From Mustelus asterias (lineage: Eukaryota), in assembly GCF_964213995.1 (NCBI RefSeq), contig NC_135812.1, positions 62,186,001-62,250,000 of the forward strand: a stretch of DNA of 64,000 nt, read 5' to 3'. Under the pieces are notes generated by a model, which did not search any database, was not told where the DNA came from, and saw only the letters and a program-made list of their open reading frames with translations. Position 1 is the stretch's first letter, and every line of letters starts with the position of its first letter. A program made the translations under genes and the position numbers. Positions 10,840 through 63,090 of this stretch are shown here, one piece after another.

Positions 10840-11114
10840 ATGATGTGGAGATGCCGGCATTGGACTGGGGTAGGCACAGTAAGAAGTCTCACAACACCAG
10901 GTTAAAGTCCAACAGGTTTATTTGGTAGCACGAGCTTTCGGAGCGCTGCTCCTTCGCATTCCAACCATTATCTTGTAAATTGAGTCTGTGCCTATACATG
11001 CCCTGTTTGTGCACCCAACTCTTCACTCACTTGATAAAGGTGCAGTGCTCCGAAAGCTCGTGCTACCAAATAAACCTGTTGCTCTTTAACCTGGTGTTGT
11101 GAGACTTCCTGCTG
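10840..11114 (-). mobile_element. Penelope-like element remnant: tail plus inverted pLTR
   Basis: 14-bp TSD TACATGGACTAGTC (10826-10839, 11115-11128); inverted arms of about 80 bp; degenerate hammerhead at 11028-11063. Confidence 0.85.
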
Positions 11115-12416: not shown

Positions 12417-12488
12417 CACAGTAAGTCGTCTCACAACACCAGGTTAAAGTCCAACAGGTTTATTTGGTAGCACGAGCTTTCGGAGCGT
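12417..12488 (-). mobile_element. Penelope-like pLTR fragment without tail
   Basis: 10-bp TSD TGTCAGTGGT (12407-12416, 12489-12498); CACAACACCAGGTTAAAGTCCAACAGGTTTATTTGGTAGC shared with the other copies. Confidence 0.8.
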
Positions 12489-12491
12489 TGT

Positions 12492-33560: not shown

Positions 33561-36043
33561 TTTATGTTAGCCAAGATACAGGGAAGCACTATAAACTCTG
33601 CCTTCTCAACCAAATTCTGTTTTTGTTTTATATTTTCTGAGGTGCAGAGCACAGTGAACGGAAACACAAAATGCCACAATGGTTCCGAAGTTTATTCCAC
33701 ACTGCTGTGGTTATAGGCTGAGTGGCTGGCTCTCCCAACATTACCTGATCTATGGATGATGAGTGCAAATGGTTTTCACTCGAACTACTGACTAGTGAGG
33801 GTCGGGGAGGGGGGTCCTGTGCTGGCTCACTATATGGGTGGAAAGCTGCCAACACCTCCATTTTGCCACACATCTTTGAGATGGTTGTGCCAGAAGTAAC
33901 ATCTGCTAGAAGACACACTAAATTGTGATGCTAGAAGAAGAGGTTATTAAGACGAGGAGATGCAAGTATCGAAAATGAGCAGCTCAGAAGAAAGGTGGTG
34001 TAGCACCAGGAGAGAGGAGAGGGAAGAACTAACATCATCCAACTAGTCCTGTTAATGTGAGGTTTCTTGCTGAATGACACAGTTAGAAAGTCACATTATG
34101 GCCCCCGCCCCTAGTGTCAGTATGCGTGGCTCAAGAACATCTAAATAGTTAAGTGGCATGGGTGGAGGAGACAACAGTAATCTTTACAAAATGTGGAAAC
34201 ATTTAATGCAGACATTTAATTTCATTGTAGTCATTTTCTCAGTCTTCAAAAAAGCTATTTGAACCTTACTCCACAGAGATAATCCCTAATCGACAATAAA
34301 TTAAACCTCAGAAAAAGTGAGTCAAGATGCTACAATTGATAGTAAGAATCAAATAAAATGAAAAAAAGGTTACAGTGGGTTGATACATTTTACGTTCTGC
34401 AAGATGTTTGCTTTTCAACCGGAATTTTGCCTAACTGATAAATAAACTGCCTGCTGTGCTTCAACGGGTGGCATTCTCTCCCAAGCTACATCAGAAGCTT
34501 GTGGATTCAAGTCTCAGAACAGAGATTCAAGTACAAAATCCAGGCTTACTATTTAGAGCAGTACTGAGGGAGTGCAATGCTGTCTTCCTGACAAGATGTT
34601 AAACTGACTGTCCTACTGGGTGTAAAAGATTCCATGGTGCTATATCAAAGAAGGGCTGAGATTTCTGACCAATATTTATCCTTCAACAAACATTAATGAA
34701 AGGTTATGAAATGGATACAGAACTGGCTTGGCCATAGAAGACAGAGGGTTGCAGTAGAGGAGTACTTTTCTGAATGGAAGGCTGTGACTAGCGGTGTTCC
34801 ACAGGGATCAGTTCTGGGACCTTTGTTGTTTGTAATATATATATATAAATGATTTGGAGGAAAATGTAGCTGGTCTGATTTGTAAGTTCGCAGATGACAC
34901 AAAAATTGGTGGAGTTGCGGATAGTGAAGAGGATTGTTAGAGGATACAGCAAGATATAGACCGGTTGGAGACTTGGGCAGAGAAATGGCCCAAATCTCCT
35001 GATAGAGTTTAATCCGGAAAAAATGCATTTTGGAAAGCCTAATGCATGTAGAAATTATACAGTAAATGGAGAACCCTTAGGTGTATTGACAGGCAGAGAG
35101 ATCTGGGCATATATGTCCGCAATCTCTCAAAATGGCAACGCAGCTGGATAAGGTAGTCAGGAAAGCATACGGCATGCTTGCCCTCATCGGTCGAGACATT
35201 GAGTATAAAAACTGGCAGGTCATGCTGCAGCTGTACAGAACCTTAGTTAGGCCTTATTTAGAATATTGTGTACAATTCTGGTCGCCACATTACCAGAGGG
35301 GTGTGGATGCTTTGGAGAGGGTACAGAAGAGGTTTACCAAGATGTTGCCTGGTCTGGTGGGTATTAGCTACGAGGAGAGTTGGATAAACTGGGTTTGTTC
35401 TCACTGGAACGACGGAGGTTGAGGGGTGACCTGATAGAGATTTACTAGATTATGACAGGTATGACAGATAATGAGACAGATAAAATTAATGATCTTCTTG
35501 TGAGGGATCCTCTTGGAATGAGTGATCACAATATGGTTGAATTTCTAATACAAATGGAGGGTGAGAAAGTAGGGTCCCAAACCAGTGTTCTCTGCTTGAA
35601 CAGAGGGGAGTACAATAGGATGAGGGCAGAATTGGCTAATGTAGACTGGGAGCGCAGACTAGTTGGTAGGACAGCTGAGCAACAGGGGCGGATTTCTAAG
35701 GAGATTTTTCTCAGTACTCAGCAAAAATATATTCCTGTGATAAAGAAGGAATGTAAGAAAAGGGATAACCAGCCATGGATAACTAAGGAGAGTATTAAAT
35801 TAAAAACCGATGCGTACAGAGTGGCCAAAACTAGTGGGGAATTAGAAGATTGGGAAAGCTTTAAAAAACAACAAAGAACTACTAAGAAAGCGATAAAGAA
35901 AGGAAAGCTAGATTATGAAACTAAACTAGCACAAAATATAAAAACTGATAGTAAAAGTTTTTACAAATATATAAAAAGGAAAAGAGTAGCTAAAGTAAAT
36001 GTTCGACCCTTAGAAGACGAGAAGGGGGATTTAATAATGGGAA

Positions 36044-37741
36044 ATGAGGGAAACGGCCGAGGCCTTAAACAAGTTTTTTGTGTCGGTCTTCACGGTAGAG
36101 GACACAAATAGCTTACCGAAAATTGACGGTCGTGGGACTGTAGGGGGTGAGGTCCTTAAAACGATTACTATTACTAAAGAGGTAGTGCTTGGTAGGCTAA
36201 TGGGACTAAAGGTAGACAAGTCCCTGAGCCCGGATGGAATGCATCCCAGGGTACTGAAAGAAATGGCAGAAGTAATAGCAGATGCGTTGGTTGTAATTTA
36301 TCAAAATTCGCTGGACTTTGGGGAAGTGCCGGCTGATTGGAAAACAGCTAATGTGACGCCACTGTTTAAAAAAGGAGGTAAACAAAAGGCGGGTAACTAC
36401 AGGCCAGTTAGCTTAATGTCTGTAGTTGGGAAATTGCTGGAATCCATCATTAAAGAAGAAATAGCAGGACACCTGGAAAAAAATGGTTCGATCAAGCAGA
36501 CGGAGCATGGATTCATGAAGGGAAAGTCGTGTTTGACGAATTTACTGGATTTTTATGAAGATGTTAAGAGTGCGGTTGACAGAGGGGATGTGGTGTTTTT
36601 GGATTTCCAGAAGGCGTTCGATAAGGTGCCTCACAAAAGGTTGCTGCAGAAGATTAAGGTACACGGAGTTGGGGGTAAAGCGTTAGCGTGGATTGAGGAT
36701 TGGCTATCTAACAGAATAGTCCAACGCCGGCATCTCCACATCATATCTAACAGGAAGCAGAGAGTTGGAATAAATGGGTGCTTTTCTGGTTGGCAGACTA
36801 GTGGCGTGCCGCAGGGATCAGTGCTGGGGCCTCAACTGTTTACCATATACATAGACTATCTGGAGGAGGGGACCGAGTGTAGGGTAACAAAGTTTGCAGA
36901 TGACACAAAGATGAGTGGGAAAGCGAATTGCGTGGAGGATGCGGAAATTCTGCAGAGAGATTTGGATAGGCTAAGTGAGTGGGCGAGGATCTGGCAGATG
37001 GAGCATAACGTTGACAAGTGTGAGGTTATCCACTTTGGAAGGAATAATAGTAAAATGGACTATTATTTAAATGGTGAAAAATTACAACATGCTCCTATGC
37101 AGAGGGACCTGGGGGTCCTTGTGCATGAATCGCAGAAACTCAGTTTGCAGGTGCAGCAGGTGATCAAGAGGGCAAATGGAATGTTGGCCTTTATTGCAAA
37201 GGGGATGGAGTATAAAAGCAGGGAGGTCTTGCTGCAATTGTACAAAGTACTGGTGAGGCCGCAACTGGAGTACTGTGTACAATTTTGGTCCCCTTGTTTG
37301 CGAAAGGATATATTGGCCTTGAAGGGAGTACAGAGAAGTTTCACCAGGTTGATACCGGAGATGAGGGGGTTATCTTATGAGGAGAGATTGAGTAGATTGG
37401 GCCTGTACTCGTTGGAGTTTAGAAGGCTGAGGGGAGATCTTATAGAGACATATAAGATAATGAAGGGGCTAGACAGGGTAGAGGCAGAGAGATTCTTTCC
37501 ACTTAGAAAGGAAACAAGAACTAGCCTCAAAATAAGGGGGAGTCAGTTTAGAACAGAGTTGAGGAGGAACTTCTTCTCTCAGAGGGTAGTGAATCTCTGG
37601 AATTCTCTGCCCATTGAAGCAGTGGAGGCTACCTCGTTAAATATGTTTAAGACAAAGGTAGATAAATTTCTGATCAATAAGGGAATTAAGGGTTATGGGG
37701 AGCGGGTAAGTGGAACTAAACCACTATCAGATCAGCCATGA
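36044..37741 (+). pseudogene. CR1 ORF2 reverse transcriptase reading frame (565 aa, defective copy)
   Basis: Motifs NYRPVSL, FLDFQKAFDKV, SGVPQGSVLGP and KFADDTK. Confidence 0.9.
36715..36743 (+). mobile_element. 29-nt Penelope-like tail-only insertion
   Basis: AATAGTCCAACGCCGGCATCTCCACATCA between perfect 10-bp TSDs TATCTAACAG (36705-36714, 36744-36753). Confidence 0.9.
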
Positions 37742-43170: not shown

Positions 43171-43353
43171 TAACAATAGTAACAATGAATAATATTCTGG
43201 CCCTGTCCTCTTATTGAATGAGTTAGGCCTTACTAGGAGTACAAAGCCCAAGATCAATAAGAGCTCTCCAGCATCTTCCTTAAGTTCCCATTCTGAGCCT
43301 GGACTGTTGGTCAGGTATATTGGTCTTTTAATTCAGTGCTTCTTTTCTTTCAG

Positions 43354-43800
43354 ACCAGTGCACGTAGCTCCCCCTACGCTCCCTGGAGTACAGCCAGCAG
43401 CTGGAACAGCCGGCGTTCCAGCTGGAACAGCCTTGGCCGCGCTCAAAGCCTGAAACGCAAGCATCAGTCGGGCGAGCGCAAGTCCCTCCTCTCGGGCGAC
43501 GGCAAAGAGAGTTCCGACGAAGGTGATGGGTCGGAGGATGAGAGAACCAGTCGAGCCGGTAGCAGGAAGGGGTCAACCTCTCAGCGCATAGAGTCTCTGG
43601 AGATTAAGGGTTCTTTTGACATTCCCGACACTCTCCAGGTACCTGGTCTTCACAGATCTCCCAGCATCCATAGCAGCAGGATCCCACCAATGGATCGTCA
43701 GGACTGTAACGGTAAAACCTCCCCAGCTGCCGCGCCTCACCAGGTCCACGTGGATGAACAGAGAGCTGAGCTTGAACATACTGAGGATGAAATTGATACG
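43354..43800 (+). CDS. CACNA1G: Cav3.1 coding exon (exon 17 equivalent), II-III linker
   Basis: tttcag|ACC...ACG|gtgagt; 447 nt; TSARSSPYAPWS...SRRSSWNSLGRAQSLKR...SGERKSLLSG...SFDIPDTLQVPGLHR...QDCNGK; phase 0-0. Confidence 0.95.
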
Positions 43801-44177
43801 GTGAGTGACACCAGTGACTGAAAAATACAAGAAACCAATCTGCAGCTGCTTCCTCTCAAGTGGCTTTCAAATGAATTCTACTTCTGTGGACTGCAGGGAA
43901 ACAATGAAAGAAATTGCATCCATTTTCTGCTCAGGAATGTTCACTGAGAGCGAGAAAGCTCAGGTTAGAGTGAAACCGTGAATAACCACAGTGGGAGTCT
44001 GAGAGTGAGAAAGGTCAGACATTGATAGAAGTCAGCTGCACATTATACTTGAATATTTTCTCTGGGACAAGAGTTTGGACCTGGTGTGAACAGAAGGAAT
44101 GGATGTTCTCTCACACTGTTTCCCTACAGGTTGCTTTGTCACTACTCTCTCCTCTAGCCCAGACTGACAATGAGCAA

Positions 44178-44388: not shown

Positions 44389-45074
44389 GGAAATGCTGAG
44401 GGGAAGCCCCCTTTTTTTAACTACCCTTTCCATTTGCTTCGCTATCTCCAGCTCTCCTCTTCATTCTCTCTTGTCCCCCACCTTCTCGTCTCCAGCTTTT
44501 CCCTCTTATCTTCTTCTCTATATTTCACCCCCAGACTCCCACCGTGGTTATTCATGGTTTCACTCTGACCTGAGCTTTCTCGCTCTCAGTGAACATTCCT
44601 GAGCAGAAAATGGATGCAATTTCTTTCATTGTTTCCCTGCAGTCCACAGAAATATAATAAATTTAAAAACCACTTGAGAGGAAGCAGATGTAGATGGTTA
44701 GGATAATCAAATAAATCAGACAGCTCTCCAAAAGCAAACACATTAACAGCAAGGCATGTTCGGTGAGTTTGCCCGCATGTGCTTTGCAGCAGATGTTTCC
44801 ACATCAGAAACAATTTGTTAGAATCTGGATCATTCAGTGCGTTAAAAACTTATTTGGGAGTTTGAATTCCTGATTAAATCCATTATAAAGACTTGTACTA
44901 TATCTGCACTTAATTGCAAGAGGGTTGGCTATGGTTATTATTGCTTTGTTGCTGCAAAAGGGAAGCACATTGAATACTGATCTTTGTAGTGAAACTTGCT
45001 GTTTTCGGTGACAGAAATGAAACCAAATCTGAAATTCGACAATCGGACTGACACGTGCGAACTTGTTTCCACAG

Positions 45075-47716: not shown

Positions 47717-48424
47717 AACAATTTTTTAATAGACTCAGGAGCTAAATTTTGAAAAGATCCCAGACAATTATTTTTAACAATCATTGATAAGCCAAAACAG
47801 CAGAGTCAGCATTCACAGACATCATAAACCTTGAGCAGTCCTGGGCAGCTTAATTGACATTGTTTTTATCTCTGAGGTTGTGGGTTCAAATCCCACTCCA
47901 GAGAGTTAGGCCAGAATTATATGCTTTTATATGTTCCCAAATCCCCAGGAATGTGCTGATAGGTGGGGTTCCATAAAATTAGGTAGTATGCAGGGGTCTC
48001 AGACCTGGCGCCTACCTGCCTCCACTGCTACATTACCAGCAGTGGAATAGGTGGCAAGAAGCATGTCCACCCTCATGCCAATGCGGGCCCTTAAGTGACC
48101 AACTATTTATTATTTTACCTGCCCACACAACATGGTAAATTCTGGCAAACTAGCTGCAGGCTCTGGGTGGGGGGTCCATCCTGCTTGGGTACCCTGCCTG
48201 ACTGATCCTGGCATAGCCTCCCCAACCCACTTTTATATCTGGCCTCCATGCTGCCCCTCGTGGGGACTGCCTGAAGTACCAAAAGTGGCCACTGCTTCCA
48301 GTGGCGCTCCTGGGACAGGAGGCATAAGTCACTCCCTTCGCCACTTAACAGCCTGACTGCCATAAAGTCAAGTCATGGCATCCTCACCCTGTGGAGGTGA
48401 GCCCACCCCTGACCTTTCAGCCAG

Positions 48425-48679
48425 AGTAAGAAGTCTAACAACACCAGGTTAAAGTCCAACAGGTTTATTTGGTAGCAAAAGCCACTAGCATTCGGAACAG
48501 GCTGTTCCTTCATCAGGTGGGTGGGAGTTCTGATCAGAACTCCCACCCACCTGACGAAGGAACAGCCTGTTCCGAAAGCTAGTGGCTTTTGCTACCAAAT
48601 AAGCCTGTTGGACTTTAACCTGGTGTTGTTAGACTTCTTACTGTGTTTACCCCAGTCCAACGCCAGCATCTCCACATCA
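48425..48679 (+). mobile_element. Penelope-like fold-back insertion: 218-bp palindrome plus 37-nt tail
   Basis: Palindrome 48425-48642 centred on TGATCA, 3 mismatches; TSD TGAC(C)TTTCAGCCAGAG (48410-48426, 48680-48695). Confidence 0.9.
48547..48585 (+). ncRNA. Minimal type I hammerhead ribozyme motif
   Basis: CCAC-CTGACGA-A-GGAACA(GCC)TGTTCC-GAAA-GC-TA-GTGG: stem I, conserved core, stem II, palindromic AGCT stem III, UH site. Confidence 0.75.
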
Positions 48680-49574
48680 TGACTTTCAGCCAGAGGGCAG
48701 GCCCACCGCCTCCATGAAAAATTTGGGCCTTGAACACACATTCTAGGCTGTAATTCTAATACCAGCACTGGGGGAGTCAGTTGTCTTTTCACTGAGATTT
48801 TAAACTATGGTCCTATCTGTCCTCACATGTGGATGTCAAAGATCCAATAACACTTGGTGTTATATGATGCATACAGATCTTTAAGGGTGTAATAATTTCA
48901 TTTTCTAATTCAGCCTCTAGTTTAGAACAAAGGGGGATGTTGTGATATGATGTGCATGGACCTTCAAGGGTACATTTCTGAAACTACTGTCAATCACTAC
49001 CCTTTTTGACAGAGGATGTGATATATTAATCCCATGACTCTGTACTCAGTATACAGCAGCAATAGTCAAGATCAGATGTGCCTCTCAGTCTCCCAGTGAA
49101 CATTATCTGTATATAGTCTTACCTTCTAGTAAAGAAAATCCACATTATTGTTTTCTAAATCCTTCTCACATGATTGGTACATTTACATTAAATAGAAGAA
49201 TGTAATAGCACTCTTCAAAGATGAGCAGGGAAGTTTTCCCTGATATCCTGGCCAATATTTATCCCCCAACCAGTATCTAAATCAGAAGATCCAGTCATTT
49301 ATTTCATCAATGTTTATGCTATCTGTAGACTCTGGCTGACTGTTTCCTACATTACAACAGTGACTACTCTTGAAAAGCACCAATTCGATATATTATGCTT
49401 TGGGATGTAATGAGATTATGAAGGACACCGTGTAAATGCAAGTATTTCATTTGTTTATCCGTTTACATGTACCCAGTGCTCTGCTCTGACCACTGGCAGT
49501 CCTATTCTTCACTCCCTGCTCAGTATCACTTGAATGAAGGTGCACCAATTCCTCAAATAGGCAACTGCAGCACT

Positions 49575-49613
49575 AAAGGACTGTAACAGAGGACTGTAAC
49601 AAAGGACTGTAAC
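49575..49613. repeat. 13-bp tandem repeat x3
   Basis: AAAGGACTGTAAC AGAGGACTGTAAC AAAGGACTGTAAC. Confidence 0.9.
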
Positions 49614-50153
49614 AATGCAGTCACAGAAAAAAAACTCATCTGTAACCCTGAGAAATCCAGCACACATTCTGCTGGTGACTCAGTGCAAATTCAAAATGTG
49701 AATATGTGGATCTGGAAATGCTGGCAGAATACATGGGAAGGTAGGAATGCAGAGAGCCACAGAAGACTGTCCCTCTGGATTGGTATAGGGTTTAGTCACT
49801 CATTGTCCTTTTCAAATCTTTAACCAATTCACCTTTGAATTAGTTAGTATTAAACCTGCTTCCACCCGCCAACCTTCTAGATAGTACTTTCCAGTGAGCA
49901 ACATCTTGCTGACCATTTCATTTCCTGATGTTGCCCCTGGTTCCCTAGCCAAATATATAAAGTTTGTGTCCTCCGGTTACTGATTCCTCTGCTATTGGGA
50001 ACAGTTTCTCCTTATTTATTCTCATCAAAACCCTGCAAGATTATGAATCTATCGAGTTAGATAATGTCTGTTCAGATGGGTCACCAGTTGTGAGGTGATG
50101 ATGCACGTGTATTTGTCCCATGTAAATGGTAAATGGATATTTTTCTTTTTCAG

Positions 50154-50277
50154 GATCCGTCTCATTTGCAGCAAAATTATTTCGCACAAGATGTTCGACC
50201 ACATTGTTCTGGTCATTATCTTCCTGAACTGCATTACTATTGCCATGGAGAGACCAAAGATTGATCCTAAGAGTGCA
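50154..50277 (+). CDS. CACNA1G: Cav3.1 coding exon (exon 19 equivalent), domain III S1
   Basis: tttcag|G ATC...GCA|gtaggt; 124 nt; [41 protein letters not shown]; phase 2-0. Confidence 0.96.
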
Positions 50278-51169
50278 GTAGGTTTTATTTCTCCTACTCA
50301 GTTTTTACTTGATTTGTATGATTATAATGCCTATGAGTAATTTATGAAGGGTTAGAATACTAAGATTTATAATGTGGGATGAACTGGAATTGGTCGCCTG
50401 GTCCTTCATAAAGTCTGCTGAAACGTGTACTTTAAAAATGAACTGGAAAGGTAATAGCAAATCAGAAATAGTCGGCGGTTGAAGAATCACCGGTGTGCCA
50501 CTTTTGATCTGGCTTCATCTGAGATTTGGGCTGAATTTTTGCACACCCTCCTCCTCCGCTAACCCTGAAGTTGGAAACAGAATTGGGCATGGTGGGGCTG
50601 GGGGGAATGATGAAGCAAATGCTTGCAACAGTCAGCTTGAGAGTGTTGTACCCAGTGCCAGCCATTTTAGAGGAGGTGTGTTTCGGACTCAGGGAGGCCA
50701 CTTCTATCCAGGAGGCATTCAGGCAACCAGGCTTGTGAAGAGCCTTGTTCAAGGTAAGTTTGAGAGGACGATTGGAGTCTTTCAGTTGGCCTCCTGTCTC
50801 CCAATGCGACAGCAGAGTTAAAATGCCTAGAGACAGATAGCGAGCAGAAAACTAAGTTGCTCAGGCACCTGGCAGCCCTATGGGCCTTCACCGCATGCCT
50901 GGGTATTGGCACAGCCAACCACCATCCTATTGAGCTATAGAGTCTCCCCACAACCCCATGGTGGTCTGGCTGCTATTTGTTTTTTTATTATATTTTTATA
51001 TATGTTGCTGACAGGGCACCCTCCCAGTTACTTACCTTTTATTTCAATCTGAAGCTGGGAAGGCCTGTAATTGGCCCCTTAGCTTCACGAGCCTGTCCTC
51101 CACCCTTAATTGGACATGGAACCCGTCTCTATGACAATTAAGGGCTCACCCATGTGAAAATCTTAACTT

Positions 51170-51410
51170 TAATGGGGTCTCCCATTTAAGACAAAGATGA
51201 GGAGGAATTTCATCTCTGAGGGTCAGTAGTGTTTGGAATTCTGTTCCTCAACAAGCACTGGAGGCTGAGTCGTTGGATAAATTCAGGGGTGAGTTTGACA
51301 GATTTTTGATAGGGGGCTGGAAGAAAAGTGAAGCTAAAGCCACAATCAGAAGATCCTATCAAATGACGGAGAAGGCTTGAGTGCCTATTCCTGCTCTTAT
51401 TTCTTATGTT
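51170..51410 (+). mobile_element. CR1 3' end
   Basis: GATGAGGAGGAATTTC...TTCCTGCTCTTATTTCTTATGTT. Confidence 0.7.
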
Positions 51411-52066
51411 TAAGCTGTTTTCCCTCAGACGTTGGTTTCTGACCTAAAGGCAAACCTGAATGCTGTTTCCCGCCTCCTTTGTGGAAATTCAGACCCATGG
51501 ATATTGTAAGACTTTTAAACAGGGTGATTCACTTCACCCTATGATCTGGACTTTGTACTAAGCATCAATGACATGAAACATACTTTGGATACAATTTCCA
51601 CTTTCTGTGGGAAATGTTTATTAAGCCACTGAGCAATAGTATGTGCTTACACCGATTGCTTAGTTAGATCCACATGCAGGAGCTCATTTCCAGGTGGTCA
51701 TTCTGCTGAACACATTCTTCTGCAAGACTTCCATGACTGCCAAGTGACACTTCCCTGGCTGTAGCAGCAATGCGCTTGTGAGCTACAGCTTTATTCGCCC
51801 ATTTTGACCCTGGTCCCTTTACCTATAAGAAAATATCTTATCAATCCCACCATGGCAAGACCAACTACATGTGGTTATTTCCTGCTCTGAGCCACAGCAC
51901 TGGTTGTTCTGGTCAAGCAGTGTCTCTTTTTGTCAACATGAAAGCAGAGTTGTATGAAAGGAGAGAAGGTTAGCATTCCCCATAAGAATGGAAGGGACCC
52001 TAGTGGCCTTACAACACAAAATGGTTATGGCATTGCCATATACTTAGTGGCATCTAATCATGGTTG

Positions 52067-52400
52067 CCGGCACAGTGGTTAGCACTGCTGTCTCACAGCT
52101 CCAGGGAAATGGTTTCGATTCCAGCCTTGGGTGACTGTCTGTGTGGAGATTGCATGTTGTCCCCGTGTCTGTGTGGTGCTCCAGTTTCCTCCAAAAGATG
52201 TGCAGGTTAGGTGGATTGGCCATGGTAAATTGTCCTGAGGTGTCCCAAGATGCGTAAGTTAGATGGATTCGCCATGGTAAATGTGTGGAGTTATGGAGAT
52301 ACGGCGAGGGAGAGGGCCTGGGTAAGATACTCTGTCAGAGAATCAGTGCAGACTCAATGGGCCAAGTAGCCTCTTCTGTACTGTAGGGATTCTATGGTTC
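52067..52400 (+). mobile_element. HE1-type V-SINE
   Basis: GGCACAGTGGTTAGCACTGCTG head and CTGTAGGGATTCTATG tail. Confidence 0.88.
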
Positions 52401-52519
52401 AATGATCACCCCATGATTTTGACACAATCGACTTCTGTTGTCTGCTATGGTCAGTGTTGTGACACCACATTAAGGGTTCAAATGAAGTAGTTGTGAGGAT
52501 GAAAAAGTAAGTAAAGGCT

Positions 52520-53438
52520 AGGGGCCGGATTTTCACCATCGAGGCAGGATACTCGAGTCAGGAAATTTCTGAACTTGGCAGACCCAGTTGTATTAAAGGT
52601 TGTTAGGCCCTTAAGTCTTCACCCCTCACACCCCTTCATGCACCCACCTACTTCCCATGCCACATCCCGAGGCAATCTATGAACTAGAACAATAGAAACA
52701 AATAGCCAGACATACGTTTCTCCAGATAGCCTCATTATGAATGCATGACTAAGCTCCAAGACTCATTAATGGATTAGCTCCACCTAACTTCAAAGGTGTT
52801 TGCTTTGATTGATTGACATCTGTACTAGGTTATAATAAGTTATTCTTTCTTTGAACAGTTTCTTTCAATGTCTGTATATTTAGTTGGAAAGGATTGAAGT
52901 GAGCTAGTTATTGATACTATAATCAGTATGTCTGACCTGAATGACACTTCTATAGAATTGTAAGAGCAGCAGTTGCTTTTGAAGCAGATTTTTGAATGGG
53001 AGTATGAAGGGGCCTTGGGGGTCATGGAAGAGGGAATGGGGTTTTGGATGTGGCTTGATGACATGGAGTTGCCTTGCCTGGTGGGAGCAGGGAGGGCGGG
53101 AGGGCATGGAGGCAGCATTGAGGGCATGGATAAGACCTGTTAAAATGGTTATTGAATCGAGACAATGGCTCACATCTGCTCTGAATGGTTGTAAACTACG
53201 TGTCCTTGAAATGCTGGCCTGACTGCGCAAACATTGCAGGAGGGTATGAGATTCCCACCCCAGTAAGGATCCAGCCAGGTAGGGAGTGCAGGGTGTGGGC
53301 TCACTACCTGTACCCTTATCTCATGCTGGCGAAAATTGCCGCATTGGGAATGGGGGCGGGAATCCAAGAATCAGGGCCCACCTACCATTTTTAAGGGTCT
53401 CCGGAATCTGCCCAACTCCGCACAAATCCAACCCCAGG
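52520..53438. mobile_element. Possible longer non-autonomous DNA transposon related to the MITEs
   Basis: GGGGCCGGATTT / AAATCCAACCCC imperfect termini; non-coding interior. Confidence 0.4.
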
Positions 53439-54319
53439 GCTAAAGCATTGTAGTATATTGTTAACATAGCACTTAGCTGTTGGCAATTGCCAATTACTTA
53501 ATAAACTTGCAATAATGGCGTGATTCTTGATTCTTCTGGTATGAAAGCCTGTTGCTTTTAAGGGGATGAAGATTACTCTATTGTACTCATAACTATAACT
53601 ACCAGCAAACTGAACACAAGCTGACTTATTTTACTTTTGACCATGCCTCACTCTCTACTCACGCAATCTTTCATCCCCTGTCAATCTACACTTTCTTTCC
53701 ACCATCATTTCATCCCTTACCAAGCTGACTTCTTTCATATCATTTCTATTAGACAGTTACGAATAGATTCTTGATCCTATGAACAGGATAATGCTTAACA
53801 CACTTGTGTGACATTCCTCTGTGCAGTAGCCTGGGTTGCATACTAAAAGAACAGATTGAGTATTAAAGGTTAATCCACTAACATTACGAATGCTAACGTC
53901 TCCGTTATATTCCTTACTGTGTCATACGGGAGATCATTGATAGATCATTGATAGCCCATGGGCTTTGTGGAATATGAGCATCTTCATTGAGCGAGCAGAG
54001 GCTCACCCAATGAGAAGTGGACAGCAGGAGCTTATAAACCTGCTGCCCAACTTGCACCGGCATTATAGGTCCCGAGGTGTAGACTGTCTAGCTGTTAGCC
54101 GCAGGTGCAGTCCTTCTCTTTGGTACACAATAGAGGTTCTTTGGTGATAGGAAACTAGTGTCTGGCTGAAGTACCAAAGATACTCAGTACTTTAGAACTT
54201 TTTCCCAACTCAAACTGAAGGGTGAGGATTGGAGGAAGATGAAAGGTAGGCTTTAATTTTACATACCAGTTGGAATATTCACATGGGAAAGAAGACATTT
54301 ACTGGGCTTGGGGCAAAGA

Positions 54320-54552
54320 CAGTAAGAAGTTTGACAACACCAGGTTAAGGTCCAACAGGTTTATTTGGTAGCAAAAGCCACACAAGCTTTCGAGGCTCTG
54401 AGCCCCTTCTTCAGGTGCTTCACCTGAAGAAGGGGCTCAGAGCCTCGAAAGCTTGTGTGGCTTTTGCTACCAAATAAACCTGTTGGACTTTAACCTGGTG
54501 TTGTCAAACTTCTTACTGTGTTTACCCCAGTCCAACGCCGGCATCTCCACAT
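54320..54552 (+). mobile_element. Penelope-like fold-back insertion: 98-bp arms, 3-nt loop, tail
   Basis: Arms 54320-54417 and 54421-54518 with 1 mismatch; 13-bp TSD CTTGGGGCAAAGA (54307-54319, 54553-54565). Confidence 0.92.
54421..54457 (+). ncRNA. Minimal type I hammerhead ribozyme motif (mirrored on the - strand at 54381-54417)
   Basis: CAC-CTGAAGA-A-GGGGCT(CAG)AGCCTC-GAAA-GC-TT-GTG. Confidence 0.72.
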
Positions 54553-54939
54553 CTTGGGGCAAAGAACAGGGAATTGGAACTGATTGGATAGCCCTATCAA
54601 TGAGCTGGCGTGGACTTGATGGGCTGAATAGCCTCATTCTGCGCTGTGAGATTGTATGAATAAGAGGAAGTAACAGAATTACAGTAATAAAATTAGGAGA
54701 GATATTAGAAGGAAAAAGATGACTGAGGCAGGACTAACTTCTAGGCTATAATCCCAATGGCATCACACATATTTACCAGCCTGGGTCTTGTCCAATTCCT
54801 TGTTTCCATCAACTGGGAAATTGCAGAGTGACTTCCCAGTTTGACATATGTTTACATTCTTAAAACTAAGAACAAAAAAGGAAGAAATTTATCTTTTTAA
54901 ATAATCAGAAAACGTTGGTTACGAGGCTGTTTTTGTTCA

Positions 54940-57040
54940 GTTATAAAATAGTACCAACACAGAAAGAAACCATGCACTGGAAGGGCAATCTAGTTAATCT
55001 CATGCCCCAGCTCTTTCTCCCTGGCCCTACATTTTTTTTCTCATTCGAGTATTTATCCAATTCCCTTTTGAAAACTGCAACTGAATCTTTTTCCACCACT
55101 TTATCAGGCAATGCACAGAAATTCGAATCACTCATTGTGCAAAAATTGGAGCAGTAGGCCATTAGGCCCATCAACCTTGCTCCTCCATTCAAACAGATCT
55201 TGGCTGATCATTTACCTCAATGCCATTCTCTTAATATCCCTTGATCTCATTAGTATCCAGAAATTTGTTCATTTCTGTCTTGAAGATGTTCAATGATTGA
55301 GCTTCCATAGCCCTCTGGGTAGAAAATTCCAAAGATTCACCACCCTCTGAGTGAAGAAATTCCTCTTAATCTCAATCTTAAATAGGCTGCTGCTTATTCT
55401 GTATCCCCTGGTTTGAGACCCAGGAGAAGCATCCTATCCACATCTTGCTTGTCACACCCTGTAACAATTTTGTAAGTTTCAATTGCATCACCTTCAAAAT
55501 TCTAGGGGAGACAGGCCCACTTTCCTCAATCGCTCCTCATAAAACAATCCCTCCATCCCAGGGATTAGTCTGGTGACCTTCATTGTGCTCCCTCTATGGC
55601 AAGCATATCATTCCTTAGATAGGGAGACCAAAACTGAAAACAGTACTCCTGATGCAGTCTCGCCAAGGCTCTATACATTTGCAGCAAGACATCTTGACTC
55701 CTGTACTCAAATCCCCTTGAGATAAAGGCCAACATATCATTTGGCTTCCTAATTGCTTACTGCAGCTACATGCTAGCTTTCAGTGACTCATGAACAAGGA
55801 CATCAGGTCCCTTTGGACATCAGCACTTCCTAACCTCTCCATTTAAGAAATACTCTGCAGTTCCGTTTTTCCTACCAAAGTAAATAACTTCACACTTATT
55901 CACATTATATTCCATCAGCCATTTTCTTGTCCATTCACTTAACCTTTCATATCCCCTTGAAGCCTCCTTGCATCTTCCTCCCAACTCACATTCCCGCCTA
56001 GTTTTGTGTCATCAGCATGTTTGGAAATGTTACATTTGCTTGACACATCCAAATCATTTATAACTCTACCCTCTCGTACCCTTCAGCCTTCAGAAACAGT
56101 TTCTCTTGTTTGCTAACCCAATCTCCACTTAGCCTTCTCTGCTCCAAAGAGAACAATCCCATCTTTAGCCACCTCATTTATTTCTTTTGAATGAGTCAAA
56201 TTCTGTGAACATCTTTAACATCAAACAGGGGAGCTGACAAATTGGAGATAGATAAATAAAGAGATGTAATTTAGTATGCTAATGAGTATAGGCATAGAAA
56301 CATAGGAACAGGCTAGGCCATTCGGCCCCTCAAACATGCTCCGTTATTCAATAAGATGGTAGTTGATCTGATTGTGGCCTCAACATCACTTTCCTGCCTG
56401 ACCCCCATAAACCCTGGCTCCCTTGTTGATCAAAAATCTGTTTTTCTCAACCCTTAACATTTTCAGTTACCCAGCCTCCCCTTCTGTCTGGGGAAGAGAA
56501 CTTCAAACACCGATGATTGGCTGAAAGAAGAAATTCCTCCTCCTTATCTTTGTCTTAAATCATTATTTTATGTACCCCTAAGTTCTAGATTCCACCATGA
56601 CAGGAATCATCCTCTCAGCATCTACCCTCTCAAGCCCCTTTCAGAACCTTTCATGATTCCATAAGATCACCTCTCGTTCTTCAAAACTCCAATGAGTATA
56701 GTCACAACCTGTTCAACGTTTCCTCATAAGAAATGGGAGCGTGAGTAGGCCATTCAGCCCTTCAAGCCTGCTCCAGCATTCAATGAGATCATGGCTCATA
56801 AGACCATAACATGTAGGAGCAGAAGTTGGCCATTCGGCCCATCAAGTCCGCTCTGCCATTCAATGAGATCATGACTAATCTGATATGATCTTCTATTTCA
56901 AGACCATTTTCCTGCACTATCCCCGTATCCCTTGATGCTTTTAATATGCAGAAACTTATCGACCTCTGCCTGAATATACTCAATGCCTGAGCCTCCACTG
57001 CAACCTGGAGCAGAGAATTCCAAAGATTCACAACCCTGTA
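54940..57040 (-). mobile_element. Cluster of stacked CR1 3' fragments
   Basis: Repeated GTAGGCCATT(C)AGCCC/GGCCC tail signatures near 55150, 56310, 56745 and 56825; minus peptide NLWNSLLQVAVEA. Confidence 0.8.
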
Positions 57041-57636
57041 AGTAAAGAGTAATTAATCAACTGCCCACATTTAGTAATATTAGTGACGATCTTATCTTCA
57101 TTGTATGTGTGTGAGCAGCAAAGTGTCAACTGAGAAGAGGAGACAGATACATGTTGGCTGCCAGTGGGTTAAAGAGAAGCTTGGTCATTGTCCTGAGATT
57201 TGACAACCATATGCAGTTGTTCAAGATCTGAGCCCAAAGTTTGTAATGGATTCATAACACCTATTCTACAACAAATCCTGAAATGTCCATGTAGGTTACA
57301 GTCCATGCATCTACAGTTTTACCAAATTATTATTATACAATTAATGCAATAATTAAAATATCACTTTTATTGAAGATGTTTTACTTATTTATGGCAACAG
57401 TGCTGGAGGGGATTGTATACAAGGTGATGTTTTATTGCTGGGCTTATTACCATTTTGTTAAAATTCAATTACTGTTCTCTGGCAGACATTTAAATAAAGT
57501 GAGAGGGGAAAGATATGCTGTGAAAAGAGAGGAAAGAAATAGCTCTGCTATCAGAAAGGATGAGAGAGCCAACCAGATAAAGCTGGCACTGTGCTACAGC
57601 TTGCCAAAGCCAATTACATTTATTGCCAGTGCTGTA

Positions 57637-57755
57637 ATATGAACAGGGCTCCCTGAGTAACTCTGGGGTCAGCTTTGTTATATGAACAGGGCTCCCTGAG
57701 TAAATCTGGGATCAGCTGTCATATGAACAGAGCTCCCTGAGTAACTCTGGGGTCA
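57637..57755. repeat. 41-43-bp minisatellite x3
   Basis: ATATGAACAGGGCTCCCTGAGTAACTCTGGGGTCA starting at 57637, 57680 and 57721. Confidence 0.92.
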
Positions 57756-59359
57756 ATGCTGGAAAGTTGAAAGACGACACTTTTATTGTCACTGCTGTAA
57801 ATCTCCTCCGCCAGATGTAAATGGGTCAAAGTGAGCAGCTCCATCATGTTGCAGATACATAAAAAGCATCCTTCAGCGGAATTGCTGCATCACGCTACAG
57901 TATGTATGTGGAATTGGATAGATCTGTGCTAAAGCTCTATGATTGACACAGAGGGTGTTAGACAGAATATGCCATGGATCCACATGAGAAATTAGATTGC
58001 GCTATTGCTGCACAGTGCAAATAGGTTATTAACCAAGCCTGCAATATTGCTCCATGGGTACATACCCACAGTACCAGATAATCACACAGATATTTCCCTG
58101 CAGTTTAATCAGAGCATTAGACAGACTGGCAATACCACCTCAGTATAAGCTTTACATCTGGCATTAAACAGGTCCCGCCCAATTAACATTACCTTAACAT
58201 TGATCTGAGTACGTCATGTGTGATGAGATCCCGGATCTTGTTAACAATCCTTGCTTTTTCTCACAGTGGAATCCTGGCGTTCTGAGGTAAACACTCCATT
58301 GCTTCCTTTGACCTACAATTGAAAAGTCAGCTCTGATATTTTCATGCTGGCCAGCACAAATATACTAGTGTTTTTTTTGAAGTTGTCCATGGGCTGCTGA
58401 AAATGCCCATGGGTTGCATCTGTACTTACTACTTCATATTTTGTTTGTGCAGTCAACATTCTCTGATCTCTGGCCCATTGTGTAAATAAAGAACATGTGA
58501 AAAAGCTGAAGTTTAACTAAACATTCTGATGGCTTTTTAATTTGGTATTTGCATGTGAGAGACACACACACAGGGCAAAGTTTTTCTTTTCAGCAAATAT
58601 ACTTTATTCTTGAAATGGGTGAAAGTACTGTGAACAACCATTCAAATTTGACATTACGTAAAGTGTACTGCAATCCAGCTTTCTGTCAGTTACAGGCTGT
58701 CACACTTTGAGGTGCCATACTACACCTAGAATTACAGGTTTTTTACAATATCTGCTTGCATTTCATGTCAAACATTCACTGGTGCATGCAGCCTGAGGGG
58801 TTTCGCACAGGTTTCAGTCCCGCATTGAAAGATGGCTGGAGGCCTTAGGCTGTGGCCTTTCTTACACTTCTGGATCTTGGAATATGCAAGTCTGCAACTT
58901 TCATTCAAGGACAACTCACTGCATTGGAAGACCAGCAGATTTTAGGCAGACTAAAGCGAGCCTTTCACCTTTGATGGTCCTGCAGCAGGAGTTAACGTTT
59001 GTGTCAGTGTACCTCCCTGGGAACAGCCCAAGGGTGCTGTGTAGCAGAACTGCGCAGGATGAACCTCAACAAAACCATCGCATCTCTCCCCGTTTCTTTA
59101 CAATGGCAGATTCCAGAAAGAGGTGGGCGACCATCTGTTCCCCATTCGAAGACGGCGTGCGGTGGTGGAGTCTCCAGGTGCACATGATGGATCTGACAGA
59201 AAAGGCCCTTCTAACCACCAGCCAGTCTACATCTTGCTGCTTGTTGAAAAGCCCTGAAAATGAGGCATTTTGCCAAATTGTAGTCACAGAATAGATACCG
59301 CTGAGGGAAACCAAGATATTCATGCTGCAGAAAGGAATGACCCTCCAATTGTCATTTCT

Positions 59360-59606
59360 TCCAGGGACCCGGGATTGATTCCCAGCTTGGGCCACTGTCT
59401 GCACGTTCTCCCCGTGTCTGCTTGGGTATCCTCCGGATTCTCCAGTTTCCTCCCAAAGATGTACTGGTTAAGTGCGTTGACCATGCTAAATTCTCCCTCA
59501 GTGTACCCGAACAGGCGCCGGAGTGTAGTGACTAGGGGATTTTCAGAGTAACTTCATTGTCATATTAATATAAGCTTACTTATGACACTAATAAGTAAAC
59601 TTTAAA
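59360..59606 (+). mobile_element. Truncated HE1-type SINE with alternative tail
   Basis: V domain then GTGTACCCGAACAGGCGCCGGAGTGT...AGTAACTTCATTG. Confidence 0.8.
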
Positions 59607-60590
59607 CAGTAGCAGGATTGCTAATCAGAAGGCACAGATCTGTGATCATTAACAAAAGAATCAAAGGGGCATTCAGGAGATTTTGTTTTAGGCAGCATGT
59701 TTGTTATAATCTGTAATGCGCTACCTGAGAGGCTGGAGAGAGCGATTCAATAATAAACAGCAGTGACAATAATAAGCTTCCTAAGTGTGGGGAGATTGCA
59801 GTCCAGTCTGTGCCAATGGCTCAGTTTTCTCACTGTTATGATACTTAGTTATTTTCTGGGAAAGTCGTGGCCCTAGTTTATAGTTGAGGTCATCCTCAGG
59901 TTGGGAAAGCAGCAAGTGTGATGGGCCAAACAGTCTCTTCTTTTTCCAAACTCTCTTCATGGGCATTCTTTAGCATCAGTGCGGTTACAAATTTAGAATG
60001 TCAAATCTGAGTAGCAGTCTGCTGAATGAATGTGACTGATTTAGCCCAGTGTTACACCAGTCCATCAGGAACCACTTTTGAGTGGCCTTGATGGAATGAC
60101 TGCCATAGCTCACGCCCTATGATTCAGTATGCTATCCCCTTTAATAAGACCTAATGTGGAACATGCAAAGGGAAAATTATTGGCCTTGCGATTCATTGAC
60201 TTCCCTCCAGCTTATAGTTCAACAGCAGCATTTCCCTGGAAATTCCTCTAATACTTCCCTTGGTGTTTTGAGGGGAATTCTCCATGGTCTGCACGCAAGT
60301 GTCTGATAGTTTGCCAGACTGCTGAAGTCTGTCAATGCCCTTACACAGCGCACTGGATTAGGAAGCCAAGAAGTAATTGCTTGCAGCTGAAGGTTTTCTC
60401 GTGCAAGCAAAACTTTGATGAAACTGTTCATCAGCTCCTTTTTCTGTTACAGGATGAGATCCGAGCTTCAAAAATCTAAAGGACTCTGTTGCACAGCATT
60501 TTCCTCAACACCCTCCACCCCCATCCTCCTGCAAACCGTCCTTCTCTCTAGCTCTGAAGAATGGTCACGTGGACTCGAAATCTTAACTCT

Positions 60591-60706
60591 GGGTGGAATT
60601 TTCCCATCCCTCCCGCCACGGGAATTGTAGTGGACCGTGCAAAGGTCCATTGACCTCGGGTGGGATTTTACAGCCTTGGGGCGAGCGAGGCTGGAAAATC
60701 CCACCC
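60591..60706. mobile_element. Short MITE, subfamily B (PIF/Harbinger-like)
   Basis: 14-bp TIR GGGTGGAATTTTCC / GGAAAATCCCACCC (13/14 match), TCT on both flanks. Confidence 0.75.
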
Positions 60707-61670
60707 TCTATTTTCTCTCTTTTTTTTGTTTCAGATTCCTGCATCCGCAGTATTTTGCTATTTTAAGTGCTCTGTAAAGCTGGGGGAAGTTGCACACTCA
60801 CTGAGGGGGATTTTAAAATGCAGCTCAATGTGGAACAGGACACTGGGGTCCAAACTAGTGCATGCAGCAGCAACATCAGAACAGGACTTGCACTGAATGG
60901 CATCAAAATGAGTCCAAACCATGAAGGAGGAATAAGCTGCATACGTTTAATTTCAGCTTATTTCTTCAGCCCATCCTGTATTGTGAAGGATCGGCATCAG
61001 AAACTCCTATCGTCAGCATGCTTCAATGGTTCCAGCTAGCTCCTGCCTTTTCCCAAAGCTTTTATAAGCCGCTCTCCTGCATTATGTTCTTACATTCTTC
61101 ACGGAAGAACTGCTTATTGAATCAACTGGAAAAAAAATATTTTCTTTAAAAACTGCTACAGTAGCAGGAAGGCGACAGTAATCACAGAGTGAAGCTGGGC
61201 TTGAAATAAGTAAAGTTGGCAAGTGATGGGGGCAGCCTTCGAGTCATGAATTTACAATCTAAGCATTTTGCTACATCCTGTTGTTATTAAACTGACAGCC
61301 AGTCACAAAGAGCTGTTTCCCTTGTCACCATGGTGATAATTCAATCATTGGGGCTAGGATTTGGGACCACCACATAAAGCAGGCGAAATTGAGCTCCGGG
61401 CTGGGGAACTTTGGAACCGGGAGCCTGGGAATCTCTCGGCAATTCCTTACCCCAAGTGAAATTTGGAGTAAAGTAGCTCATGATCACTTTGTCCCATCAT
61501 TATTATGGTTAGCCTGAACATTTCTGCTTACGATATCAGCCTGATGCATTCAGAAGCATTCCTCTGATATTTTGTTGCTATCATTAAACTGATTATTTAA
61601 ACACAAACGGATATTGTATCAGTGAGCATTGCATTTATTCACTGTGGTACCTAGTTGTCTATTAGAAGTT

Positions 61671-61803
61671 GGGGGCGGGATTTTCCATTCCCGCCAGCAG
61701 CAGGATAAGCCTGCTTGGGCAAGACAAAAATTGGGAGAGCAGTCAGTCTTCCCATCCCGCCCGCAGCGATGCCTGATGCTGGTCAGACCGGAAAATCCCA
61801 CCC
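61671..61803. mobile_element. Short MITE
   Basis: GGGCGGGATTTTCC / GGAAAATCCCACCC termini. Confidence 0.65.
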
Positions 61804-61840
61804 GTGTTGTCTTGAGTATTTTTTTTCACGAACACAGATC

Positions 61841-62220
61841 TTTGGCATAGTGGTAATATCAATGGATTGGTTATCCAGAAACCTAACCTAATGCTCTGGG
61901 GACATGGGTTCAAATCCCACCAGGGCAGCCGGTGGAATTTAAATGCAGTTAAGAAAATCTGGAATCTAAAGCTCGTCTCGGTGCTGGTGACCATGACAGT
62001 GTTGTCATAAAAGCCCATCTGGCTCACTAATGTCCTTTAGGGAAGGAAATCTGCCATCCTTACCCGGTCTGGCCTACATGTGACTCATAACCCATAGCAA
62101 TGTGGTTGATTCTTAAATGCCCCCTGAAATGGCCGAGCAAGCCACTCAGTTCCAAGGTAGTTAGAGCTGGGCAACAAATGCTGGAGCAGCCAGTGACATC
62201 CACATCCCCTAAAAGATTAA
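61841..62220 (+). mobile_element. tRNA-derived SINE (second family)
   Basis: TGGCATAGTGG A box, GGGTTCAAATCCCAC B box, shared body. Confidence 0.8.
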
Positions 62221-62606
62221 TTATTAACAGGCAGGAAAAGACCGACTGGTGCATCAAGCCCACCTCACACCATGACAACCCAAACATTGTGGCTAAATAT
62301 TCCCTTTCTCTTCCAGTTGCATATTCCGTGATAGCAACATTGGGACTGGATTTTTAGGCCCTGATGGGTCGAGTATGGTGGAGCAGGAATTTTGATCACT
62401 GGCCCACTTGCTAATTCCCCAGTTCCAGCCTATCCATTGTTTTCATTTCGCAAAAGTTGGGGGTGACAAGGGGGTACAAGGCTACCTACCCACAAAGGAC
62501 TGGTAACCACTTAATTATGGCTTGAGGCCAATCGTCAGACGCCACCCCCAGACCTCCTGAGGTACCAGAAACTAAGCCAGCTGTCCGAAGCTAGTTGTTT
62601 CAGCTG

Positions 62607-63090
62607 TGATGTGGAGATGCCGGCGTTGGACTGGGGTGAACACAGTAAGAAGTCTCACAACACCAGGTTAAAGTCCAACAGGTTTATTTGGTAGCAAATA
62701 CCATAAGCTTTCAGAGCGCTGCTCCTTCGTCAGATGGAGTGGAAATGTGCTCTCAAACAGTGCACAGCGACACAAAATCAAGTTACAGAATACTGATTAG
62801 AATGCGAATCCCTACAGCCAGCCAGGTCTTAAAGGTACAGACAATGTGGGTGGAGGGAGCATTAAACACAGGTTAAAGAGATGTGTATTGTCTCCAGACA
62901 GAACAGCTAGTGAGATTCTGCAAGTCCAGGAGGCAAGCTGTGGGGGTTACTGATAATGTGACATAAATCCAACATCCCGGTTTAGGCCGTCCTCATGTGC
63001 GCGGAACTTGGCTATCAGTTTCTGCTCAGCGACTCTGCGCTGACGTGTGTCGTGAAGGCTGCCTTGGAGAACGCTTACCTGAAGATCCTA
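62607..63090 (-). mobile_element. 5'-truncated Penelope-like retroelement (ORF C-terminus, hammerhead, tail)
   Basis: TSD TTTCAGCTGTGA (62598-62609, 63091-63102); minus frame 63087-62947 DLQVSVLQGSLHDTRQRRVAEQKLIAKFRAHEDGLNRDVGFMSHYQ*, with the E...GLN pattern of a GIY-YIG C-terminus. Confidence 0.85.
62701..62737 (-). ncRNA. Minimal type I hammerhead ribozyme motif
   Basis: Reverse strand CCAT-CTGACGA-A-GGAGC(AGC)GCTCT-GAAA-GC-TT-ATGG. Confidence 0.75.

Follow-up and report, generated by a model that had tools for sequence, protein, structure and literature searches.

The window, a 64,000-nucleotide stretch of Mustelus asterias DNA (contig NC_135812.1, positions 62,186,001 to 62,250,000), holds two exons of a + strand gene whose best match is human CACNA1G (E 9e-34 and 2e-25), together with six insertions of one Penelope element, all six of which possess target duplications. 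The features are as follows, with bounds of the first exon approximate and pLTR denoting the pseudo-LTR of the element.

10836-11119, insertion D: inverted pair, 14-bp target duplication
11028-11063, + strand, decayed hammerhead D: core TTGATAA, nt17 = C
12417-12490, - strand, stub of the same Penelope element: truncated inside stem II, 10-bp target duplication
36718-36744, + strand, tail-only stub of the same Penelope element: within a LINE, 10-bp target duplication
43350-43810, + strand, CACNA1G-like exon (II-III linker)
48422-48689, insertion A: inverted 5'-truncated pLTR copy (48422-48533), sense pLTR copy (48534-48645), tail to ~48689; 13-bp target duplication at 48414 and 48683
48482-48520, - strand, mirror hammerhead A': one mismatch, GAAA to GAAT
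48547-48585, + strand, hammerhead A: right arm of the inverted insertion, cut predicted after 48581
50155-50279, + strand, CACNA1G-like exon (domain III S1), between hammerheads A and B
54309-54556, insertion B: 109-bp inverted arms plus tail; 13-bp target duplication at 54307 and 54553
54381-54417, - strand, mirror hammerhead B': core intact
54421-54457, + strand, hammerhead B: cut predicted after 54454
62607-63087, - strand, insertion C: solo 5'-truncated copy, 12-bp target duplication
62701-62737, - strand, hammerhead C: antisense to the gene, nt17 at 62705

The + strand hammerhead copies (A, B and D) each make up one half of an almost perfect inverted repeat, an arrangement that had gone unnoticed in the earlier, sequence-only reading of this DNA. 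The arms are 96% identical in insertion A (48422-48533/48534-48645), 97% in insertion B (54309-54417/54421-54529) and 87% in insertion D (10862-10954/11037-11129), while insertion C carries the last ~45 codons of an RT/GIY-YIG ORF, a pLTR and a tail. Because their target duplications are intact and their arms remain 96-97% identical, insertions A and B appear to be young. Copy A is 99% identical to dispersed copies, and contigs of a related organism (organism B) join 48417 directly to 48687; by this comparison, which covers copy A in one sample of one related organism, copy A is a lineage-specific insertion.

Hammerhead motifs in the window

A loose hammerhead core pattern matched 12 times in the window as compared with 4.5 +/- 2.1 times in shuffles, and none of 100 shuffles reached 12. 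The sequence-only reading had claimed three intact motifs and one decayed motif, all of which were found where it had placed them, and its predicted cut sites after 48581 and 54454, where nt17 is A and T, respectively, are supported as predictions, as is a stem III consisting of the palindrome AGCT; mirror hammerhead B' is a fourth intact motif absent from that reading. Stem I had been given as CCAC/GTGG or CCAT/ATGG, which is correct for A (CCAC/GTGG) and C (CCAT/ATGG) but not for B, where it is just 3 bp (CAC/GTG). Hammerhead A further possesses the core CTGACGA, a 6-bp stem II and GAAA-GCT, whereas the 6-bp stem II of B includes one G-U, and hammerhead C has a 5-bp stem II and T as nt17. 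Between core positions 9 and 10.1, all window motifs carry an additional A. The G-U closing pair in hammerhead C looks like CpG decay of the family G-C, with this pair being G-C in 160 and G-T in 16 of 177 copies across the family.

An Rfam search had been proposed as a check, and the hammerhead models do not detect these motifs: a scan of the window at E up to 10 returned eight matches with no hammerhead family among them. Matches to mir-607/879/711 at 54372-54466 lie below gathering scores and merely reflect the long hairpin, and a loose core match at 60554-60580, which has neither AGCT, element flank nor a clean stem II, was rejected as chance.

Parent element and variation across the family

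We conclude with high confidence that the window motifs are minimal type I hammerheads in the pLTR of an abundant Neptune-like Penelope retrotransposon, and that the CACNA1G copies are truncated and likely inert. The earlier attribution to Penelope pLTRs is upheld by window copy C and by another copy of the element (L371), whose architecture is pLTR, RT/GIY-YIG ORF, pLTR, with 123-bp direct repeats bearing hammerheads 3,007 bp apart on both sides of the ORF pieces, plus an inverted truncated copy. The L371 ORF, read from a copy broken into pieces, matches RVT_1 (E 4e-9, above cut-off) and GIY-YIG (E 4e-4, with 20.9 bits lying below the 22.6 cut-off), and its region falls in an Atlas top cluster (0.95) of which 48% of members have GIY-YIG. 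The tail of the element ends at the ATG of the ORF (L370). The L027, L026 and L008 translations reveal a CX4CXXC linker ahead of the GIY-YIG motif, and as a CX2-5CxxC linker in this position is a Neptune/Nematis trait (PMC8557442), this motif, rather than a tree, suggests membership of that clade.

Exact matches to intact cores number at least 70,025 in the genome (7,958 + 62,067; reversed control 0), with ~16,000 copies in the hammerhead B subfamily as estimated from the share of intact rows among those listed. An unselected 400-kb sample held 18 intact-core arms, 11 of them with an inverted partner, and because this amounts to 2.9 per 64 kb, the four motifs of the window are ordinary.

Covariation was measured by counts with shuffle and slide controls. 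Across 177 parsed copies, stem I pair 1 is C-G in 104, U-A in 52, U-G in 6 and C-A in 5, and stem II pair 4 is G-C in 139 and A-U in 26. Among 12 recurrent variants, 95% of stem cells pair and both sides have changed in 4 of 10 pairs, whereas slid controls showed 27-48% paired and at most one pair changed on both sides; shuffles matched the pairs changed on both sides in 31/500 cases and the further pair types in 439/500. These counts are not independent events, because the subfamilies are related. The compensatory stem changes of the sequence-only reading are real and two-sided, but they are no peculiarity of CACNA1G, being inherited subfamily traits in thousands of copies elsewhere, and hammerhead families full of such changes have been described before (PMC4209133).

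The family helices measure 3-4 bp (helix I) and 5-6 bp (helix II), with AGCU as helix III, and the recurrent variants differ at N7, nt17, loop II and paired bases while the catalytic core is unchanged. Across 189 copies the extra A between 9 and 10.1 is present in 188, the G10.1-C11.1 pair is G-C in 174 and G-T in 15, and nt17 is T in 96, A in 82, C in 10 and G in 1, such that the claim that nt17 is never G holds among recurrent variants but not in single copies (G in 3/177 and 1/189).

Stems might instead covary by DNA-level template switching at small inverted repeats, with the ribozyme vestigial even in master elements, and in keeping with this, the family often shows fold-back junctions at short palindromes, the flanking pLTR is conserved as much as the hammerhead core, and core mutants of an anole element were without effect on insertion in vitro (PMC11167929). 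We consider this improbable, as recurrent variants spare the catalytic core and avoid G at nt17, the one-sided G-U intermediates at stem II pair 3 (A-U, G-U, G-C) are not predicted by template switching, and the predicted cut has an excess of 5' ends (see below). As to the inserted copies, mismatches in 34 off-centre copies, a neutral-decay sample selected by core as well as flank similarity, fell on 5/374 core sites versus 11/1,020 flank sites; with the core as mutable as the flank and copy A missing in organism B, the copies show no host selection as far as sequence comparison reaches.

Predicted folding and the intronic setting

Folding predictions, which are for equilibrium with co-transcriptional folding and editing outside the model, gave stem I and II pair probabilities of 0.0000 for the sense copies in native context and an opening cost of 61-68 kcal/mol in context versus 4-9 for an isolated arm. 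Hammerheads A and B are predicted to be sequestered in ~110-bp hairpins with the upstream antisense arm, which at both sites precedes the sense hammerhead and so is transcribed just before it, and all five sense arms in 84 kb have such an upstream inverted partner. It is this predicted pairing with an antisense partner of their own that makes the sense copies likely inert, and the head-to-head format would account for introns harbouring tens of thousands of self-cutting motifs without damage. In every pair tested, the fold of lowest predicted energy was one other than the active dimer (AA -21.3 vs MFE -34.6 kcal/mol), and therefore activity would need help.

These predictions bear on the earlier suggestion that the two sense copies complement each other, by which A and B would pair in the CACNA1G pre-mRNA and a heterodimeric hammerhead would cut the transcript. 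Both are sense to the gene and 5.9 kb apart, and on paper an A+B dimer is feasible, joined by AGCU as a 4-bp stem III and with 3 and 4 bp in its cross stems I, but its bare-motif fold (-17.7 kcal/mol) is weaker than two monomers (-21.9), and each copy is predicted to be locked at >60 kcal/mol. In addition, the exon at 50155-50279 separates A from B, which hence lie in different introns, copy A is missing in organism B, and dimers of the minimal class cleave poorly in vitro (PMC4209133). We therefore regard such pairing as very unlikely, and with predicted hairpin locks, different introns and an ordinary density, a special role in CACNA1G finds no support. Domestication of one or more of these hammerheads for host regulation has a precedent in amniotes (PMC6155905), but intact target duplications and arm identity mark the insertions as young, copy A is near-identical to dispersed copies with its site empty in organism B, and the sole solo intact copy in the window (C) runs antisense to the gene, leaving this reading with scarcely any credibility.

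Truncated 5' ends, a proposed life cycle and known systems

Evaluating truncated copies across the family, 35 of 56 5' ends lay within 0-2 nt of the predicted cut as compared with a null of about 28%. The first 5'-end test was ~27% contaminated by the 54421-type subfamily as judged by eye. Cut-site ends amount to ~4-5% of family copies, fewer than the pile-up upstream of the ribozyme. A replicate in the GTGGCTTTT group gave a first sample in which ~77/100 rows were intact 54421-type copies (by eye), swamping the 5' ends, and a second sample, biased to fold-backs in one register, in which 7/15 clear rows started exactly at the subfamily cut (by eye, with fold-backs set aside), though ~2 of these 7 could be other subfamilies by chance. 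In run X1, joints ending at 48582 were among the best-supported of the rows listed, as were joints at 48602-48622, and the former are not counted as evidence.

On balance, we lean slightly towards the view that ~4-5% of family copies, some thousands, were reverse-transcribed from RNA cut in vivo by its own minimal ribozyme. Previous work found low in vitro activity and no in vivo evidence for minimal hammerheads (PMC4209133), and no RNA-seq ends at the cut of the anole element (PMC11167929). If our view is true, it would point to metazoan minimal hammerheads of Penelope-like elements (PLEs) firing in cells during transposition, and a 5'-end peak tracking the cut site across subfamilies, which in the 54421 type lies 2 nt further from the shared flank, would make in-cell cutting testable from assemblies alone.

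A life cycle can be proposed in which the ribozyme is kept under selection in active master elements. Within a single transcript of such an element, two pLTR copies would pair via the AGCU palindrome and be cut after nt17, a dimer cleavage in which the element's protein would probably help, as it reportedly does in the anole (PMC11167929). Reverse transcription would begin near the ORF start codon, in the tail, run back through the pLTR and stop early, after which inserted copies would decay neutrally. Less certainly, a minority of templates may already be cut before reverse transcription, which would account for the surplus of 5' ends there.

Among known systems, minimal hammerheads of PLEs (Cervera and De la Pena 2014, PMC4209133), which occur in the Xena, Poseidon and Neptune elements of fish and cleave weakly, as dimers, are alike in type I topology, long helix II, short helix I, the extra nucleotide between 9 and 10.1, G10.1-C11.1, palindromic 15.2-16.2, compensatory-change families, mostly solo truncated copies and nearby opposite-strand pairs. 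Their boxes CUGANGA, GAAA and U16.1-H17 are found here too, as is the pLTR location (L371, copy C). Helix II is 5-6 bp here as compared with 7-8 bp in Schistosoma, and at least 70,025 copies compare with ~4,000 in coelacanth and ~9,000 in Xenopus, under differing search rules; that study does not list the Mustelus asterias genome in the text covered here, and its supplement file 2 contains neither 'shark' nor 'Callorhinchus'. From EN+ elements of Neptune/Nematis type (PMC8557442, PMC3846280) we found no structural difference; both share C-terminal GIY-YIG, the CX2-5CxxC linker, pLTR-ORF-pLTR, an inverted 5'-truncated copy, a one-sided 30-40 bp tail and 10-14 bp target duplications.

The PAc Poseidon element of Anolis (Frangieh et al. 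2024, PMC11167929) similarly carries its hammerhead close to the ORF start within the pLTR and has a tail marking the region where reverse transcription starts, but its ORF starts inside the ribozyme whereas here ~95 nt separate the cut from the downstream ATG, which sits at the tail end, and genomic 5' ends are enriched here at a cut where PAc has no RNA-seq ends. Non-LTR retrozymes, reported in one chondrichthyan (bioRxiv 10.64898/2026.07.22.740005), likewise have type I hammerheads derived from PLE pLTRs, but as head-to-tail tandem units, whereas window copies are head-to-head pairs or solo stubs. Amniote intronic hammerheads (RECK and others; PMC6155905) are also type I and inside introns, but are canonical and conserved across species, whereas the window copies are young repeats with A missing in a relative. 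Taken together, the findings remove the idea of a channel-regulating ribozyme pair, and what they contribute to an already described class is a vertebrate family of very high copy number.

Hammerhead motifs and the insertions that carry them

The sequence-only reading had described three intact hammerhead motifs and one decayed one, and a check of the sequence bore out their coordinates, stems, nt17 bases and predicted cut positions.

Hammerheads in the window and one longer element copy
48547-48585, + strand: hammerhead A, predicted cut after 48581 (nt17)
54421-54457, + strand: hammerhead B, predicted cut after 54454 (nt17)
62701-62737, minus strand: hammerhead C
11028-11063, + strand: hammerhead D, decayed
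62607-63087, minus strand: element copy with the end of the ORF

Matches to the core pattern were enriched in the window (12 vs 4.5 +/- 2.1 in shuffles), and the Rfam hammerhead models, proposed as a check, gave no match there at E up to 10. The naming of the gene also fits, the two exons tested being best matched by human CACNA1G on the + strand. Hammerheads A and B each form the right arm of a near-perfect inverted repeat (112 nt at 96% and 109 nt at 97%, respectively), D is likewise a right arm, and mirror motifs are present in the left arms, the one at 54381-54417 on the minus strand being intact. Because target duplications of 10-14 bp flank all six element fragments in the window, each inverted pair represents a single insertion. 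Across the window plus 10 kb on each side, 5/5 sense arms had an inverted partner, and the sole solo intact copy was antisense to the gene.

These arms are copies of the pseudo-LTR (pLTR) of a Penelope retrotransposon whose RT and GIY-YIG coding pieces lie 5' of the motif in related loci. One locus elsewhere (L371) holds the whole plan, with 123-bp direct repeats and hammerheads 3,007 bp apart flanking a broken RT/GIY-YIG ORF, together with an inverted truncated copy; at another (L370) the ORF start codon is the end of the tail. A CX4CXXC linker in the element's translations points to the Neptune/Nematis type, judging from the available portion of PMC8557442, which with that of PMC3846280 describes an architecture of inverted truncated copies, one-sided tails and target duplications. 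At four further loci (L154, L201, L216 and L273) the tail takes in another 80-120 nt from the start of the ORF before switching back to pLTR sequence, junctions that suggest template jumps from later start points.

Exact patterns found 7,958 and 62,067 intact-core copies in the genome, counts that miss the subfamily typified by hammerhead B (54421-type), which made up about 77/100 by eye among the first 100 of 21,503 matches to one pattern. Forty evenly placed 10-kb stretches held 31 arms, of which 19 were paired head to head; 18 cores were intact, 11 of them in paired arms, giving 2.9 intact cores per 64 kb vs 4 in the window. The motifs are real, of a known class and at ordinary density.

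Intronic copies in the CACNA1G pre-mRNA

The proposal that A and B might complement each other as a dimer in one pre-mRNA is rejected on the basis of a predicted hairpin lock, a relatively weak dimer fold, an intervening exon and an empty site for A. The antisense arm precedes the sense arm in the pre-mRNA and is therefore transcribed first, and folding in context gave a probability of zero to stem I and to stem II, in A as well as in B, with 61-68 kcal/mol predicted for freeing them vs 4-9 for an isolated arm. Even when the motifs were folded on their own, a dimer of A and B (-17.7 kcal/mol) was less stable than two monomers (-21.9 kcal/mol). In a related organism (organism B), contigs from two runs of one sample, with flanks ~93% alike, connect 48417 directly to 48687, the empty site for copy A, while runs of organism A span both junctions of the insertion. 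A second indel difference lies near copy A, at 48174-48278, with ~54 bases in the organism B contigs vs 105 in the window.

The hammerhead copies are likely inert in CACNA1G. The ~110-bp hairpins of A and B (48422-48645 and 54309-54529) are plausible substrates of double-stranded-RNA editing or dicing, and it is this, in place of self-cleavage, that the host would meet.

Exon and other features of the window
50155-50279: CACNA1G exon between A and B
51947-52069, + strand: U6atac match, 83.5 bits (gathering 33, E 1e-18)
35449-37741, + strand: broken LINE-type ORF, RVT_1 E 7e-30
731-1154 / 1723-2146: inverted repeat, 424 nt, 99% complementary
43838-44008 / 44525-44695: inverted repeat, 171 nt, 92%

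The U6atac match, likely a retrocopy, is without a terminal U run and adjoins a copy of the short repeat that is most frequent in the window. A tail-only Penelope stub (36718-36744) is nested in the LINE-type ORF. The 424-nt repeat has a short repeat copy between its arms, and the searches run gave it no membership in the hammerhead family. The 171-nt repeat begins ~30 nt past exon 43350-43810, and its long hairpin, near the splice donor, could affect splicing.

5' ends of genomic copies at the predicted cut

Copies with a 5' end from 9 nt upstream to 4 nt downstream of the cut were selected by pattern (3,405 matches), and nearly all of the first 100 matches yielded 92 distinct arms at 90 loci, all on one contig. 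After excluding 7 arms with internal deletions or indels and 29 with 0-1 matching bases, a class inflated by other subfamilies and by fold-backs inside the anchor, 35 of 56 arms started 0, 1 or 2 nt upstream of the cut (8, 17 and 10; p about 1e-7), against 27-29% expected from a uniform null that allows for chance homology; the position was set in advance and the 3-nt width chosen after a first look. The excess persisted with one arm per locus (33/52) and for copies joined to unique DNA (15/27, p 0.002-0.003). Among GTGG-type copies, which have no A/T run there, 11/17 started at the cut itself or at the base before it.

We lean slightly towards ribozyme cleavage as what this excess records. 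Against it, the modal end lies one base upstream of the cut, and ATT is preferred by the endonuclease of the anole element (PAc Poseidon, PMC11167929). Other hot spots also weigh against cleavage, such as a T run 5-7 nt downstream (about a third of downstream-pattern rows, by eye), as do roughly five times more ends in the upstream zone. Per-base end rates, rough and corrected for the selecting block, were ~0.5% at 27-15 nt upstream, 1.8% at the cut, 0.36% elsewhere in the interval selected around the cut, 0.6% at 5-17 nt downstream and 0.43% at 20-24 nt downstream.

About a quarter of copies reaching the ribozyme end within the 13 nt that immediately precede stem I (45-33 nt upstream of the cut, ~2.0% per base), where true truncations made up 18/28 by script and ~52/100 by eye. 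This pile-up is possibly the element's transcription start.

Stem covariation and comparison with known Penelope hammerheads

Among 177 copies parsed from 460 anchors in the loci sampled, many picked as truncated, stem I pair 1 was C-G in 104, U-A in 52, U-G in 6, C-A in 5 and other in 10, and stem II pair 4 was G-C in 139, A-U in 26 and other in 12. Twelve recurrent 39-nt variants (of 24 seen at least twice, excluding 37-nt ones and one indel variant) had 95% of cells paired and two-sided change in 4/10 pairs, compared with 27-48% and at most one pair in slid controls; that number of two-sided pairs was equalled in 31/500 shuffles. The claimed compensatory changes hold in that stem pairs do change on both sides, but they are a handful of subfamily-inherited events, not independent counts. 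Across the 12 variants the catalytic core is constant while N7 and nt17 vary, a pattern pointing to likely selection on master elements. In off-centre copies with the main geometry (34 of 87), mismatches at core sites (5/374) and at flank sites (11/1,020), both similarity-filtered, fit what neutral decay would give.

Beyond the element plan, insertion marks, abundance, covariation and empty site, all directly observed, sense copies are predicted to be sequestered in hairpins. By analogy with the accessible parts of PMC4209133 and PMC11167929, a hammerhead dimer would cleave tandem transcripts, a protein would assist, and reverse transcription may start internally, at the tail.

Our literature search, which for most hits covered the listing alone, found no report of a 5'-end footprint at the cut; subscription papers or supplements may mention one, or describe an example from a cartilaginous fish. 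The consulted text of a retrozyme preprint (bioRxiv 10.64898/2026.07.22.740005) includes one chondrichthyan with hammerhead-bearing retrozymes. The features of the window's hammerheads are already known from PMC4209133, whose available sections describe Penelope families rich in compensatory changes, with an extra nucleotide, G10.1-C11.1 and a palindromic helix III, and also list opposite-strand pairs and low dimer activity.
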